Virus record (IMG/VR): IMGVR_UViG_3300048855_000197
Coordinates: 1 to 33,465 of that record
DNA: 33,465 nucleotides
Source: a virus
Taxonomy: Duplodnaviria > Caudoviricetes
Direction: 5' to 3' (one strand)
This document shows positions 25,075 to 30,092 of this stretch, one piece after another. The position numbers and the translations under genes were made by a program. A model generated the notes under the pieces. That model was not told where the DNA came from and made no database searches. It saw only the letters and a list, made by a program, of their open reading frames with translations. The first letter of the stretch is position 1. Each line of letters begins with the position of its first letter.

Positions 25075-25434
25075 TCATGGTGCTTTGGTGAATTTCGTTC
25101 CGCCGATCATACCACCGCCGGAAACCGACACCCAATACTCACGTCCCGGCTGCAGGCGAGGCGCGACGCCGCTCGTCTCGTATCCTGGCACCGCTTCGCC
25201 GTAAGAAAAGGTTGAGCGGCATGGTGCATCGCCTGCCCTCCCTAAAGACCAGATCGGGTCGATCGCTTCCGCCGACGCGTAAACACCAATCTCTCGAACG
25301 CAGGCATCTTCATCGCTCCGTTGCACCGTGAAGGAGATGCGCTCGCCTTGCTGTGCGACGCTAATCTCCGCTTCCTGCTGGCACCCTGTACTCACGATGC
25401 AGGTCAGCAATGCCAAAAGAGCTTTATAGCCCAT
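25075..25434 (-). CDS. hypothetical lipoprotein (candidate immunity protein)
   Basis: MGYKALLALLTCIVSTGC lipobox; overlaps the upstream peptidase gene by 11 nt. Confidence 0.72.
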   Translation of the reverse strand: MGYKALLALLTCIVSTGCQQEAEISVAQQGERISFTVQRSDEDACVREIGVYASAEAIDPIWSLGRAGDAPCRSTFSYGEAVPGYETSGVAPRLQPGREYWVSVSGGGMIGGTKFTKAP

Positions 25435-26155
25435 ACACGCCGCTCCCTTTCAGCCGCTTACGAAGCTCCGCTGCGTTCGCGCGGCCTCTTGCGTCCGATC
25501 TTCGCCGAGCTACCGCATAGTCTCCAACCATTGCAGCCTGACCCTCAAGGGTCTCAGCGTCATAACTTTGAGACCGCTCATCATAATCGTACAGCTTGTC
25601 GTCATCCCACCCCGCCTTCTCTAGTTCTCTGCCATAGCGACCGTAGAAGGGTCCGAAACCAAGTCGGTGATACTGCATGACGTGTGCGTACTCGTGCAGC
25701 ATCATGTTCATACCTTGCGGGGTTCGTGAAAGATCTGAATAGTCGATCTTCTTCAACCACCAACGCAGGTAGATCGTGTTCCCTACCGTAATCGCCGGAT
25801 TCCCGTTGAAGAAGGCACCCAGTGCTACGAAGGAGAGGCCAGGCCCAGGCACGATGCGCACGCGTGACGGATCCGGATTGGCTCCGTACGCTTCGATCAC
25901 CAGACGCCTCTCACCAGGCGTGAGTGGCCTGGCGTGTGGCCCCCGATCCTTATCGGCTACCTTGTTTGCCTCCTCGTGAAGCAGCTTGCCGAGCATCGAC
26001 ATGGTATCCGCAGCTGCCTGCCGAATGTTGGACACCTTTCTTACGGTGGTGCGAACAAGGGCTGCCCCGGTCATCTCCAACGCACGATTCAGTAGGATCC
26101 ACTCCGCTTCCGACAGGATGCGCCCTAACCGCTTGAGCCTCGTAGGCGAGAACAT
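25424..26155 (-). CDS. zinc metallopeptidase-like protein (DUF4157/eCIS-core-like)
   Basis: RPLTPGERRL....RVRI...AITVGNTIY...MMLHEYAHVMQY (HExxH)...LEGQA. Confidence 0.8.
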   Translation of the reverse strand: MFSPTRLKRLGRILSEAEWILLNRALEMTGAALVRTTVRKVSNIRQAAADTMSMLGKLLHEEANKVADKDRGPHARPLTPGERRLVIEAYGANPDPSRVRIVPGPGLSFVALGAFFNGNPAITVGNTIYLRWWLKKIDYSDLSRTPQGMNMMLHEYAHVMQYHRLGFGPFYGRYGRELEKAGWDDDKLYDYDERSQSYDAETLEGQAAMVGDYAVARRRSDARGRANAAELRKRLKGSGVYGL

Positions 26156-26688: not shown

Positions 26689-27120
26689 CTATTCTTCGTC
26701 AGCTTCTTGGCCACGGACGAGCAACCGTCCAATAAGATATTCTTGATCATCCACGATCGCAACCACGGTGAACTCGCAATCCTCTTCCACTTCAAGACCT
26801 TCAACGCCTGCGCTTGTTTGAAGAGACGCGAATGGATGTCCGCCTCGAAGTGCGCTGTCCACTAGGCCATCCATAAATTCGGAGGGCGCCGGATGGTCAA
26901 AAAGCTCTTCACCATCCAGCAGAAGCTTGAAGTCAAACTTCTTGGGCGCGGTTTCGAAGTTGAAATGGCCCAACACTGAAACAAGAAGCTTTGGAAAAGT
27001 GTGAGGAAGCTGAACCCGAAACACCTGGGTATAGATCCCCACCATTGTCTTGAATCCGCCCTCCTCCCTGCGGATATCACTGCAGAACGTGGCGGTTAGA
27101 CTTGCAGGAAGAACGTTCAT
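26689..27120 (-). CDS. DUF6941-like beta-sandwich protein
   Basis: FCSDIRREEGGFKTMVGIY..F...P..FPKLLV pattern; ATGA overlap with the HTH gene. Confidence 0.7.
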   Translation of the reverse strand: MNVLPASLTATFCSDIRREEGGFKTMVGIYTQVFRVQLPHTFPKLLVSVLGHFNFETAPKKFDFKLLLDGEELFDHPAPSEFMDGLVDSALRGGHPFASLQTSAGVEGLEVEEDCEFTVVAIVDDQEYLIGRLLVRGQEADEE

Positions 27121-27545
27121 GCCGCTTCGTACTCACCAGCAGCTACTTTGCGTTTCCCGCCTGTGGAAAACACCGTCGATTCCAGCTCAATCCAGGAACG
27201 AGCCATTTCACTTGGATGAGCAACATTAGCACAGCGCGTCACCGTACAACGCGGCTGTAGGTTTATTTCGATATCTGCATCTAGTCCCTCCGCTAGAAGA
27301 CCAAAGCCGCGGAAGCTAAGCTTGTACGGGCTGCTTATCCAGCGATGCACTTCTGCTCGTGATTTGCCTATCCGATTACCGAGCTGCTCAAGGGTCAGGT
27401 TTTCGCGAGCCTTACGTTCTTCGAACAGACAAACAAGAGCCGACCAAGCGCGATCTTTGGGGCGGAAGTCGGCGTCATCCAATTCATCCTCGTCAAGTTG
27501 ACCAAGGTCTTTTAGGTTTCGCCAATTTGCGATCTGCTTAAGCAT
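27117..27545 (-). CDS. XRE-family HTH protein, probable antitoxin
   Basis: LTLEQLGNRIGKSRAEVHRWISSPYKLSF...LAEGLDADIEINL; overlaps the upstream toxin-like gene. Confidence 0.78.
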   Translation of the reverse strand: MLKQIANWRNLKDLGQLDEDELDDADFRPKDRAWSALVCLFEERKARENLTLEQLGNRIGKSRAEVHRWISSPYKLSFRGFGLLAEGLDADIEINLQPRCTVTRCANVAHPSEMARSWIELESTVFSTGGKRKVAAGEYEAA

Positions 27546-28146
27546 GATCCGCGTCTCCGTTAAGGTATTCAGCCAGATGGTCCTGCGTGAGAACTGGCCA
27601 CGGGTCTGTCATGAATGGCTCGTCAGGGAAAAGATTTGCCCACCGATCCTGGCTGTCCACCATGGCCTGTCGCCAGCGCGTGTTCCCCGGCTCGTCATCG
27701 TCAGCCTCAAGCTCACCCCGCGCTTTGAACAAGGTTGCGACGAAGGCCCCAGGTAAAGCGAAATGACCCAACAGGCGCGTCTGCTCCACAGGCGGGCCAG
27801 ATCGGAATTCGAAAAACCCTTGCATGGCCGCATTGATCGACCCCGAACCGAGCTCCTTTATGTCATAGTTCAGATTCAAGGACTTACCGAGAAGGAAGCG
27901 TTCAAGCACCTGCCGCATCGCCGGACGTCTTGCCTTAGCAACATGAGGAGACATGCTCATCGTCGAGGGCCAAGGACGCTTTACGTAGGCGTCATAAATT
28001 TCCGGGATCATATAAAGGCATCTACACCCCGATCCTTTCACTAGATTCCTCGGCCACCACTCAATGAGAGTGCCTGCGTTGCGATGGCGTTCAAGGTCGT
28101 TCCATGTCAACATATTTGTAGACGAGCCGTACGTTTCAAGGGGCAT
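27538..28146 (-). CDS. putative RelE/HigB-superfamily toxin with extensions
   Basis: DIKELG....GFFEFRSGPPVEQTRLLGHF...FVATLFKAR resembles the RelE core (L..WEfR...RvfgxF). Confidence 0.6.
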   Translation of the reverse strand: MPLETYGSSTNMLTWNDLERHRNAGTLIEWWPRNLVKGSGCRCLYMIPEIYDAYVKRPWPSTMSMSPHVAKARRPAMRQVLERFLLGKSLNLNYDIKELGSGSINAAMQGFFEFRSGPPVEQTRLLGHFALPGAFVATLFKARGELEADDDEPGNTRWRQAMVDSQDRWANLFPDEPFMTDPWPVLTQDHLAEYLNGDADHA

Positions 28147-28210: not shown

Positions 28211-29011
28211 TTATCGTGCCGCGCGACGCGCCGCCGCCTCAGCGGCAACTGCCTCCTCCATGCACTCAGCATAGCAAGCGGCCCACCGGTGCTCGTCCTC
28301 ACAGATCACGCCATCGGCGGCGATCACCCGCTGCACGTACTGCGACAGGACCGCCCGAGAGGTGCTGCTATGGGCGTATTGCCGGATGGAGCTTTCAAAC
28401 ACCTCGCCGTCGGGCGCGAGCCGCCGGGCGTGCGCGACAATGCGGTCGAGCGGCGGTGATCCTTCCCACTCTTTCCGCAGCCACAGCGAACAGATGAAAT
28501 CCTCGATCGTCTGGGTCTCCAGCGGATGCCATTGGCCGTCGCAGCGCGCCATGAACGCGAGCACGTTCAAGCCAGCGACGATCAGCGACTTACGCGGCGA
28601 TGTGGTGTCCCACATGTCCGCCAGCGGCTTGGCTGCGCTGACCGTGAAGCGCTCGAAATAGGTGCCATCGCCCAGCGACGCTCCCGTCTCCGCATCGCGA
28701 ACCTCCATGATCCGGTCGCAGCGGAAGAGCTTGTACCGCCTGGAGTTGCCGCAGATCGCGCCGACGGACGCGTTGCCGCCGATCGTTAGGTAGCGACGGC
28801 AGGTTATCAGACGCTCGGTGACCGCACCGTCTTTATCCGCATACTCGATGACGCACATGAACCCGGCAATCGCCTGCGGTTCGTCTGAACCTGCCGGCGC
28901 GTCGGGAAGTGTGTCGACGTCGTCGCAGTCCAGTAAGGCCGTGAGGCCCGGCGGCAGAACCGCCTCCTTAACAGCGAACTCCTGAAGTGCCCCCATGCTC
29001 CCCCCTATCAT
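28211..29011 (-). CDS. WYL-domain + TerB-like domain protein (start 29011 or 28996)
   Basis: IEYADKDGAVTERLI...GAICGNSRRYKLFRCDRIMEV (WYL); LAFMARCDGQWHPLE and VIAADGVICEDE (paired TerB DG..E motifs). Confidence 0.8.
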   Translation of the reverse strand: MIGGSMGALQEFAVKEAVLPPGLTALLDCDDVDTLPDAPAGSDEPQAIAGFMCVIEYADKDGAVTERLITCRRYLTIGGNASVGAICGNSRRYKLFRCDRIMEVRDAETGASLGDGTYFERFTVSAAKPLADMWDTTSPRKSLIVAGLNVLAFMARCDGQWHPLETQTIEDFICSLWLRKEWEGSPPLDRIVAHARRLAPDGEVFESSIRQYAHSSTSRAVLSQYVQRVIAADGVICEDEHRWAACYAECMEEAVAAEAAARRAAR

Positions 29012-29115
29012 CGTCCCTTGAAGCCCCCTGCTTCACCCCAGGACGTGTTCGAATATCAAACCGTGAGCAGCCAGTTCGCCGCCGCTTTCCTACATGCCCG
29101 CGCATGGCCATACGC

Positions 29116-29130
29116 GAACAGAACAGGAAC
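29116..29130. promoter_or_regulatory. alphaproteobacterial LexA (SOS) box
   Basis: GAAC-agaacag-GAAC = GAAC-N7-GAAC, in the non-coding gap between the cI 3' end and the WYL-TerB gene. Confidence 0.7.
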
Positions 29131-29146
29131 ATTCATCGAGTCTCTT

Positions 29147-29437
29147 TTGAACGAACCCGTCTTCCGAACCGCTCCGGGCTGCGAGCTTGCCTGCCCACGC
29201 TGCGAGGTCATGTGTGCGATCCTCGCTGGGACGCGGGATGATCTGTGGCGAGAGGTGGAGGCGCTACATCGGGAGCGCTCGCTAGCGCCGTCGCCTCGGG
29301 CGGAAGCGCGGTTGCAAGTCGCGCTAGGCCATTTGGAAGCCGCTGAGCGAGAATTCGCGCGAGTTCGTCCACGGGGGCCGTTCGATCGAGCGGCCGAAGC
29401 AGCCCTTCGAACATGCGCGCCAAAGCAGCCTCACTAG
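29147..29437 (+). CDS. putative SOS-controlled small Cys-rich protein (candidate antirepressor), antisense to the cI 3' end
   Basis: TTG 16 nt after the LexA box; CELACPRCEVMC then amphipathic helices (DLWREVEALHRE, ARLQVALGHLEAAEREF). Confidence 0.45.
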   Translation: MNEPVFRTAPGCELACPRCEVMCAILAGTRDDLWREVEALHRERSLAPSPRAEARLQVALGHLEAAEREFARVRPRGPFDRAAEAALRTCAPKQPH

Positions 29438-29708
29438 GCATGGCAACCTGCATGGTCACGTGCTGGATTGTGGGTGCAGGGGGCGGCGCAAGCGCACCCT
29501 CCTCCGGGTCGTCGATCTCGCCGAGTAGGTACTCCGGCGACGTGCGCAGCTCCCGTGCAAGCCGCATGAGGTGCGCCGTATTACGTGAGGTGCCCTTTAC
29601 GAGCTTGCCAACAGCTTGCTGTGAGATGCCCAATGCACGGCCAAGCGCAGCTTGGCTGATGCCCAGCGCCTGAATGCGCGCAGCGATGCGGTCTCCCTTT
29701 AGCACCAC
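29208..29708 (-). CDS. cI: prophage repressor, XRE HTH, lacking an S24 peptidase domain
   Basis: GDRIAARIQALGISQAALGRALGISQQAVGKLVKG...LARELRTSPEYLLGE; divergent from a cro-like gene. Confidence 0.85.
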   Translation of the reverse strand: MVLKGDRIAARIQALGISQAALGRALGISQQAVGKLVKGTSRNTAHLMRLARELRTSPEYLLGEIDDPEEGALAPPPAPTIQHVTMQVAMPSEAALARMFEGLLRPLDRTAPVDELARILAQRLPNGLARLATALPPEATALASAPDVAPPPLATDHPASQRGSHT

Positions 29709-29716
29709 TCCACCCT

Positions 29717-29777
29717 AAAACTGTGGTTGTTAGCGAAAAGGGAAATGTGGTTGTTGACCCGGCACAACTCTGGTTGT
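29717..29777. promoter_or_regulatory. three 14-bp operator sites of the cI/cro switch with divergent promoters
   Basis: AAAACTGTGGTTGT (29717-29730), GGAAATGTGGTTGT (29741-29754), ACAACTCTGGTTGT (29764-29777); TTGACC -35-like at 29754. Confidence 0.72.
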
Positions 29778-29789
29778 ACTTGCTGTGGT

Positions 29790-30092
29790 ATGGACGCGGA
29801 ACAGACACCAGCCCAAGCCTTGAGGGCCTCGGTCAGCAGCGCTGGCTCGCAATCCGCCCTCGCGCGGATCTGCGGCGTCACCCAAGCAGCCGTTTGGAAG
29901 TGGCTCGACGGCGGTAAGCATCTACCCGCTGAGCATGTCCTCAAGGTTGAGCAGCACACCGGCGTCTCACGCTACCTGCTTCGTCCCGACATCTATCCTG
30001 CGCCCGCTGTCACCGTGAGTAGTGACCTATCCGCTGAAGTGGCGTCCGTCGCATCGAATACGAGCGACGCTTTCGATCGGGACCGCGCGTGA
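29790..30092 (+). CDS. cro: Cro-like (YdaS-family) regulator
   Basis: AGSQSALARICGVTQAAVWKWL...LPAEHVLKVEQHTGVSRYLLRPDIYP. Confidence 0.9.
   Translation: MDAEQTPAQALRASVSSAGSQSALARICGVTQAAVWKWLDGGKHLPAEHVLKVEQHTGVSRYLLRPDIYPAPAVTVSSDLSAEVASVASNTSDAFDRDRA

Follow-up and report, generated by a model that had tools for sequence, protein, structure and literature searches.

The window, that is, the whole stretch of 33,465 nt analysed here, is a whole virus record in which the portal and large terminase genes lie on the minus strand, and those for scaffold, capsid, small terminase, lysis, baseplate, sheath and tape measure on the plus strand (PHROG and Pfam matches). After the tape measure come an accessory block, cI, cro, a CII-like gene, Ogr/Delta and an integrase, also from PHROG and Pfam matches. 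Portal and large terminase are divergent from the scaffold-capsid-small terminase set, and a contractile tail, Ogr/Delta and an integrase are present, as in a P2-like temperate phage; we take the gene order of the window to be P2-like, coliphage 186 being a P2-like phage as well. The phage host was probably a Sphingomonas, since 10/10 genome matches of the repressor alignment are Sphingomonas or Sphingomonadaceae; the closest copies of the module described below (98% identity in the repressor C-terminal domain, CTD) were also found in S. molluscorum (JCM 14122) and S. desiccabilis (CP1D). The features around the repressor gene are collected in Table 1.

Table 1. Features around the repressor gene, in window coordinates.
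Feature	Position	Strand	Basis
WYL-TerB-like gene, downstream of cI	28211..28996	-	weak Pfam matches
Conserved TTCCTACA element, 29 nt before the box	29087..29094	+	single exact copy in window
Possible weak -10 hexamer CATACG, 17 nt after TTTCCT, 1 nt before the box	29109..29114	+	spacing in box-anchored alignment
LexA operator-type direct repeat GAAC-N7-GAAC, GAACAGAACAGGAAC	29116..29130	+	motif match and conservation
Antisense gene, 96 aa, TTG start, N-terminal CxxxCxxCxxxC then predicted helical hairpin; candidate antirepressor	29147..29437	+	
Non-overlapped 5' part of antisense gene, codons 1-20, with C12, C16, C19	29147..29207	+	
Dual-coding stretch, 230 nt: repressor CTD and tail on -, antisense residues 21-96 on +	29208..29437	.	
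cI-like repressor, 166 aa: HTH (~5-61), linker, helical CTD (~93-134), Pro/Ala-rich tail; no S24	29208..29708	-	
Palindrome ACAAC-N4-GTTGT between cI and cro	29764..29777	.	read from sequence
Cro-like gene, divergent from cI, then CII-like and Ogr/Delta	29790..30092	+	YdaS/P22_Cro, Phage_CP76 (weak), Ogr_Delta matches

Other parts of the window hold genes of a more accessory character. A low-GC (54-56%) block on the minus strand (26689-28146) comprises an unknown gene of 202 aa together with HTH and DUF6941 genes; the three seem to form an operon, whose layout resembles that of toxin-antitoxin or defence systems. On the same strand, at 25075-26155, a 243-aa gene with an HEXXH motif and a weak eCIS_core match is followed by a lipoprotein-like gene of 119 aa, a pair that looks effector-immunity-like. 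The WYL and TerB-like fusion is near-identical in three close phages, and a homologue with 30% identity occupies the same slot downstream of cI in another locus (L053); we regard this gene as accessory and outside the putative antirepressor module.

The cI protein matches the HTH_3 domain of Pfam and has no S24 match, in keeping with the sequence-only reading of this DNA, which had described it as lacking the S24 self-cleavage domain. Its family comprises 96 proteins, mostly labelled as Sphingomonas, and Peptidase_S24 was found in 0/65 aligned relatives, the 19 Pfam families matched being all of the HTH type. The AlphaFold model of cI consists of the HTH, the linker, CTD helices at residues 93-104 and 113-134, and a tail of low confidence. 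The palindrome between cI and cro is a likely candidate for the CI operator, and similar palindromes occur also in L001, whose HTH is 63% identical to that of the window.

On the opposite strand, an ORF of 96 aa with a CxxxCxxCxxxC motif had been proposed to start 16 nt after the box and to cover the last ~230 nt of cI. Both points were borne out, the overlap being of exactly 230 nt and the motif reading C12-x3-C16-x2-C19-x3-C23. Related loci were gathered via the repressor and not via the ORF, thereby avoiding circularity, and amounted to 10 from genomes and 32 viral (42, duplicates included); the antisense Cys ORF was present in 42/42, 40 of them parsed and the other two (L058, L059) read by eye. 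Pooling of all loci gave 43 distinct copies and 36 non-redundant ones (below 90% nucleotide identity). Outside these sets remained the loci that failed the parser (L021, L058, L059, L069, L074, L077, L079 and L080), two dropped rows (L006, an HTH-only match, and L134, spurious with 2 stops) and the CTD matches dropped as not being HTH-CTD proteins (G039, G138, G199, G371 and L139).

Selection acts on the antisense ORF as a protein-coding gene. Its frame relative to cI is identical in 43/43 distinct copies and, in the 36 non-redundant ones, contains no stop in 2644 overlapped codons; over the 80 codons that precede the overlap in these cI genes, that frame has 80 stops in 2844 codons and is open in 1/36, and synonymous recoding of the cI residues gives an expectation of ~46 stops and ~9/36 open frames, all of these being counts that do not represent independent trials because the copies share ancestry. 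Identities to the ORF of the window fall to about 30%. In codons 2-20, which overlap nothing, nucleotide entropies of 0.85/0.84/1.57 were obtained for the three codon positions, and the non-overlapped part has a pS of 0.76 (saturated) against a pN of 0.32. C12, C16, C19 and C23 are invariant in the 36 non-redundant copies, with both TGC and TGT in use, and R7, P10 and G11 are written with many synonymous codons. Moreover, in 42/43 copies the first Cys is preceded, at a distance of exactly 11 codons, by a start codon (ATG, GTG or TTG), as assigned by a script that took the start nearest to that position; the TTG of the window has a weak ribosome-binding site. Two 151-nt contigs came from one small-share run and are silent on strand and expression.

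As follows from the layout of the cI model, the overlap spans both the conserved helical CTD and the Pro/Ala tail. The overlapped part of cI had been read as a low-complexity tail, which holds for its last ~30 aa, the only Pro/Ala-rich ones (P+A of 39% vs 22% in the CTD core, with low pLDDT), but not for the other ~45 overlapped residues, which make up the most conserved, helical part of the repressor. In the repressor, the top residue has a frequency of 0.45 in the part facing ORF codons 21-45 and of 0.64-0.67 in the part facing codons 46-96, and in the ORF this frequency drops from 0.64 to 0.51 along its length, the conservation of the two proteins being partly reciprocal. In one locus (L054) the repressor CTD is tandemly duplicated, and the antisense ORF overlaps the distal copy only.

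The structural model of the antisense protein contains helices at residues 20-46, 50-73 and 78-89, the first two forming a confident hairpin with pLDDT > 90 at about residues 31-70, and an N-terminus with the Cys region of low confidence. Gene callers, as had been anticipated, almost wholly miss this protein: its profile matches one database protein among 4843 candidates (a word-index-limited search), compared with 96 among 249 for the repressor CTD. A single-sequence protein search accepted none of 35 candidates, 42 family members gave no PHROG match, NCBIfam gave none, and neither the ORF nor the CTD had a usable match in the ESM Atlas. Against PDB sequences the best E values were 0.35 and 0.4, with none < 0.3, and a Foldseek search of the PDB with the model returned generic helical hairpins only, none at E <= 0.001. 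Assignments to TPR_19, Molybdop_Fe4S4 or DUF6510 were rejected as sub-threshold (Pfam E 0.014-0.025), and so was the notion that the ORF mimics the CTD in sequence, since the profiles of the two show no similarity.

Just past the 3' end of cI, GAACAGAACAGGAAC is indeed a perfect GAAC-N7-GAAC. No other occurs on the two strands of the window, for which chance predicts 0.86, so that the box is not significant from the window alone. When the 75 nt before the ORF were shuffled, a plus-strand box arose in 175 of 200,000 cases. GTTC-N7-GTTC is the published LexA motif of alphaproteobacteria (PMC8565304), and the phage box is a match to this direct repeat. The motif is present upstream of lexA (4/4) and recA (4/4) in the Sphingomonas genomes checked, in agreement with the earlier assignment of the box to this type of site, and the phage box, as a match to the Sphingomonas LexA consensus, is a candidate operator.

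Conservation in related prophages, on which the initial proposal depended, holds fully for the Cys motif (36/36) and in part for the box, a perfect version of which occurs in 20/36 non-redundant copies, at -28 to -36 from the ORF start and with 18 different spacers, and which is absent in one clade. A perfect box, 77-95 nt beyond the cI stop, is present in 24 of the 42 repressor-selected loci and a box with one mismatch in another; two carry GTAC-N7-GTAC and the remaining 15 no box. LexA control is not universal, since these 15 loci, mostly of one clade, keep an intact ORF. In this well-supported clade the box is missing from 13/15 rows (L024, L025, L027, L040-L044, L048-L050, L054 and L060) and the Cys ORF is intact, often preceded by a clear GGAG-type ribosome-binding site (GGGAG), and several members share an upstream TTGTTGA...TAG motif. 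Because the clade keeps the protein, other signals must exist.

A plausible plus-strand promoter had been placed at about 29086-29115. A conserved element is found there, TTCCTA lying 28-30 nt before the box in 14/20 non-redundant box-bearing copies, but a consensus scan found no sigma-70 promoter and did not pick up CATACG either, so that the promoter position is putative. The TTCCTACA element is a probable -35 region or regulator half-site. A search of viral contigs for the promoter only, by DNA alone and with the pattern TTCCTACA-N18-23-box, yielded at least 119 loci, with the Cys ORF directly downstream in 37 of the 119 matches listed and, for loci with GC >= 55%, in 33/46 of those listed. 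For 24 of the Cys ORFs selected by promoter among the matches listed, 900 nt of flank was available, and 21/24 showed overlap, in the same frame, with an ORF on the minus strand. The idea that CI autoregulates the antisense promoter was also considered and rejected, as no convincing shared word of >=9 nt was found between the region upstream of the ORF and the cI-cro region (4/36 copies had GC-rich, chance-like words).

The CTD, the ORF and the box stay together while the DNA-binding domain is exchanged. For three copies (L003-L005), identity to the window reaches 98% over the CTD and 93-94% over the ORF but only 16-20% over the N-terminal part, and many other copies have unrelated HTH regions too. 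Co-inheritance of ORF and CTD is partly forced because the genes overlap. In this regard, two variants are informative: in L191 the ORF and the repressor stand tail to tail with no overlap, and in L113 a third gene lies between them and the antisense frame of the repressor is broken, the box, the ORF and a CTD-type repressor being still together. Such adjacency without overlap argues for a functional partnership beyond forced linkage. As a minor observation, the CTD repressor beside the ORF and box has an acidic tail in the de-overlapped loci (L113/L138 and L191). A similar ORF in L272 has too little flank to tell, and L221 has the promoter and the repressor with no intact Cys motif.

A different situation is encountered in four genomes of 1.9-2.1 Mb (G036, G140, G220 and G284; loci L144-L147 and L160-L165), possibly Zymomonas-like by size and GC and with about 40% GC in the two loci measured, where HTH-CTD proteins occur without the Pro/Ala tail, an open antisense frame or the box. 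Two of these non-prophage loci have a transporter-like and a peptidase-like gene, or tandem HTH-CTD copies, with neither cro nor phage-like neighbours, and the proteins apparently represent a domesticated repressor family. The loss of the frame in them indicates that it is not a by-product of the CTD, and since the tail-less copies are also those without the frame, the Pro/Ala tail seems to exist because of the overlap.

At the family level, 401 genomes contained the ORF in 22 cases and a CTD match in 23, with both in 15 and four of the CTD matches spurious; two genomes (G207, G315) had no CTD match at all. Overlap with a minus-strand ORF in the same frame was seen in 22/25 family-level ORF matches, some CTDs being too divergent for the CTD profile, and 20/25 carried the box, twice in reversed orientation (L105, L116). 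The ORF was found in 10/401 genomes at the order level and in 1/401, the centre genome, at the class level, and not outside Sphingomonadales in these two samples. One unannotated phage record was matched (MT836451.1). Homologues without a box comprise two shortened ORFs with no CTD match (L114, L115) and two ORFs with no CTD opposite (L079, L080); all four are free-standing and have the Cys motif, that of L115 lying just upstream of baseplate-like genes.

The closest known layout is that of AimX-AimC-AimL in the Bacillus phi106 family. There, a 29-aa AimX ORF lies just downstream of a LexA site and overlaps the end of aimC by 30 bp in antisense, and AimX binds AimC directly and has been modelled on its C-terminal oligomerisation domain, many members having no LexA site (10.1101/2025.11.23.689978). 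The present repressor resembles AimC in being a short non-cleavable HTH protein with a small helical C-terminal domain (for oligomerisation in AimC) and a divergent cro-like gene, and the antisense gene resembles aimX in being a small ORF downstream of a LexA-type site, convergent on and overlapping the repressor 3' end, with some members lacking the site. On the other hand, AimX proteins of 29-80 aa are described there as also under arbitrium control (10.1101/2025.11.23.689978), unlike the present one, which has 96 aa, an invariant Cys4, a 230-nt overlap over a conserved CTD and an alphaproteobacterial host. No aimRP is found upstream of the ORF, the neighbour being the minus-strand WYL-TerB-like gene, itself absent from most relatives. 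No homology to AimX emerged from the database searches above.

Small, poorly annotated proteins of Vibrio and other prophage modules reportedly inactivate the cognate repressor. These small-ORF modules are reported to work irrespective of the DNA-damage cue (Silpe et al. 2023, PMC10432266), unlike the present one, where a LexA-type box fronts the gene and the gene overlaps cI. The regulatory logic is that of 186 Tum, N15 AntC and Gifsy GfoA/GftA. As outlined in sections of Lemire et al. 2011 (PMC3121763), these are small genes kept off by host LexA, and their products disable repressors that RecA does not cleave; a LexA-controlled antirepressor of a non-cleavable repressor is what they would share with the present module. 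The same sections place the Gifsy antirepressor unit outside and distant from the immunity region and linked to dinI, present Tum as partly DinI-like, and contain no description of overprinting on the repressor for Tum, AntC or Gifsy (PMC3121763). The antisense protein showed no homology to the Tum/DinI-linked or any other described antirepressor family in PHROG, NCBIfam, PDB and Foldseek searches. The module would thus work like the LexA-controlled antirepressor systems without being a member of them by sequence. Neither this protein family nor a 230-nt dual coding of a CTD was found described in the open-access literature searched, nor was an alphaproteobacterial LexA-antirepressor switch. 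The switch logic is already known, and the antisense protein most probably represents a new antirepressor family.

We consider it probable that positions 29087-29437 constitute a LexA-controlled antirepressor gene, read in antisense through the C-terminal half of a non-cleavable prophage repressor. In the lysogen, LexA bound over the ORF start region would keep the gene off, and upon DNA damage its RecA-stimulated cleavage would turn the gene on, so that the 96-aa protein is made. The Cys4 site may bind a metal (Zn or Fe-S) around which the protein would fold, and the helical hairpin would bind the helical CTD of the repressor and break its oligomer, as AimX does with AimC. Loss of the oligomer would then free the cro promoter and lead to lytic growth. 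Convergent transcription through cI may help, a contribution that is probably secondary; antisense RNA mattered little in the closest studied system (Kabel et al. 2025). A broader proposal, which we put forward tentatively and regard as rather doubtful, is that ~230 bp form a cassette in which a repressor oligomerisation domain and its own metal-binding inhibitor share opposite strands, recombining and being inherited as a unit while the DNA-binding heads shuffle, with the Cys4 and alternative promoters wiring different clades to SOS or to another signal.

Other explanations deserve consideration. Many LexA-controlled phage genes are not antirepressors, and the protein might be a real SOS-induced phage product with another target, either a host factor (LexA, RecA, division or defence proteins) or a phage function such as excision. 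The dinI homologue within the LexA-controlled unit of Gifsy (PMC3121763) would be a precedent, shortened free-standing homologues exist with no CTD repressor nearby (L114, L115, L079), and nothing in the fold and family searches suggests CI binding. We nevertheless deem such a target unlikely, as the repressor family has no S24 domain, the sole perfect box of the prophage fronts this ORF, the gene adjoins a CTD repressor even when de-overlapped (L113, L191) and it is lost in repressor copies outside the prophage context. It is less probable again that the switch operates mainly through RNA, with cI silenced by convergent transcription or by an antisense RNA upon SOS induction and the protein being secondary. 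The promoter faces head-on into the last 230 nt of cI, and the aimX/aimC layout, which is similar, was initially supposed to work by antisense control, although in phi106 and phiW23 the effect was carried by the protein and not the RNA (10.1101/2025.11.23.689978). A silencing of this kind would neither account for the strong selection at the protein level, with its four invariant Cys, nor for the retention of the protein in de-overlapped copies, and a block of synthesis would presumably not remove an existing stable repressor quickly.

A co-repressor or stabiliser of CI, or a metal or redox sensor tuning CI, expressed in the lysogen, would suit the clade that keeps the gene without a box, often with its own ribosome-binding site and TTGTTGA-like upstream motif, yet in the box-bearing majority LexA would silence the gene precisely during lysogeny, which is the wrong sign and makes this role quite improbable. 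In the last alternative, the target of the box is WYL-TerB, the divergent gene, and the ORF arises as a shadow of the repressor codons; this is already largely refuted and barely credible. In its favour, the box lies ~120 nt upstream of WYL-TerB in the window and is of a kind expected there by chance. However, WYL-TerB is found upstream of the ORF in 5/43 distinct copies vs 27/43 for the box, which travels with the ORF and not with that gene; regulation of WYL-TerB by the box, suggested at the outset, is accordingly disfavoured. Moreover, stops abound in the frame where it faces the HTH part, as they do across from the CTD in non-prophage copies, and the Cys motif lies mostly outside the overlap.

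If the antirepressor reading is true, it would explain the induction of widespread Sphingomonadaceae prophages with non-cleavable repressors, the gene being carried by 22/401 family genomes, and would amount to an alphaproteobacterial LexA-antirepressor switch. It would add a protein family almost wholly missed by annotation and a natural example, cleaner than is usual, of two proteins that likely interact and are encoded in antisense to each other over a long stretch. Natural controls are at hand in the de-overlapped, the non-prophage frame-lost and the HTH-swapped copies and in the box-less clade, which make the co-evolution of the overlap and the specificity of the antirepressor testable.

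Some further observations concern the promoter. A reading of TTCCTA as a Caulobacter RogA site was rejected: the RogA operator has the spacing GGAA-N4-TTCC (PMC9632790), and the complete palindrome here reads TAGGA-N4-TCCTA, that is, GGAA-N2-(T/A)TCC, with a different spacing, the window having a half-site only. TAGGA-N4-TCCTA followed by a LexA box ~20 nt later was seen in L125-L128 (host chromosomes G243, G002, G001 and G003) and in L099, L100, L102, L106, L107 and L118. In these loci the arrangement forms the divergent promoter of a chromosomal HTH and S24-like gene of 206-240 aa and a small gene, and one of the encoded proteins has 213 aa, as Caulobacter RogA, with a site spacing that differs from that of RogA. 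The phage module keeps a full or half copy of the palindrome at the chromosomal spacing, which makes a host XRE/S24 repressor a possible second input, or the chromosomal locus a possible source of the promoter. Finally, in L202 a promoter composed of TTCCTACA and a LexA box drives a different, Cys-less helical ORF antisense to the C-terminus of another HTH repressor, L274 looks similar, and these ORFs possibly represent a second antirepressor family in the same slot.
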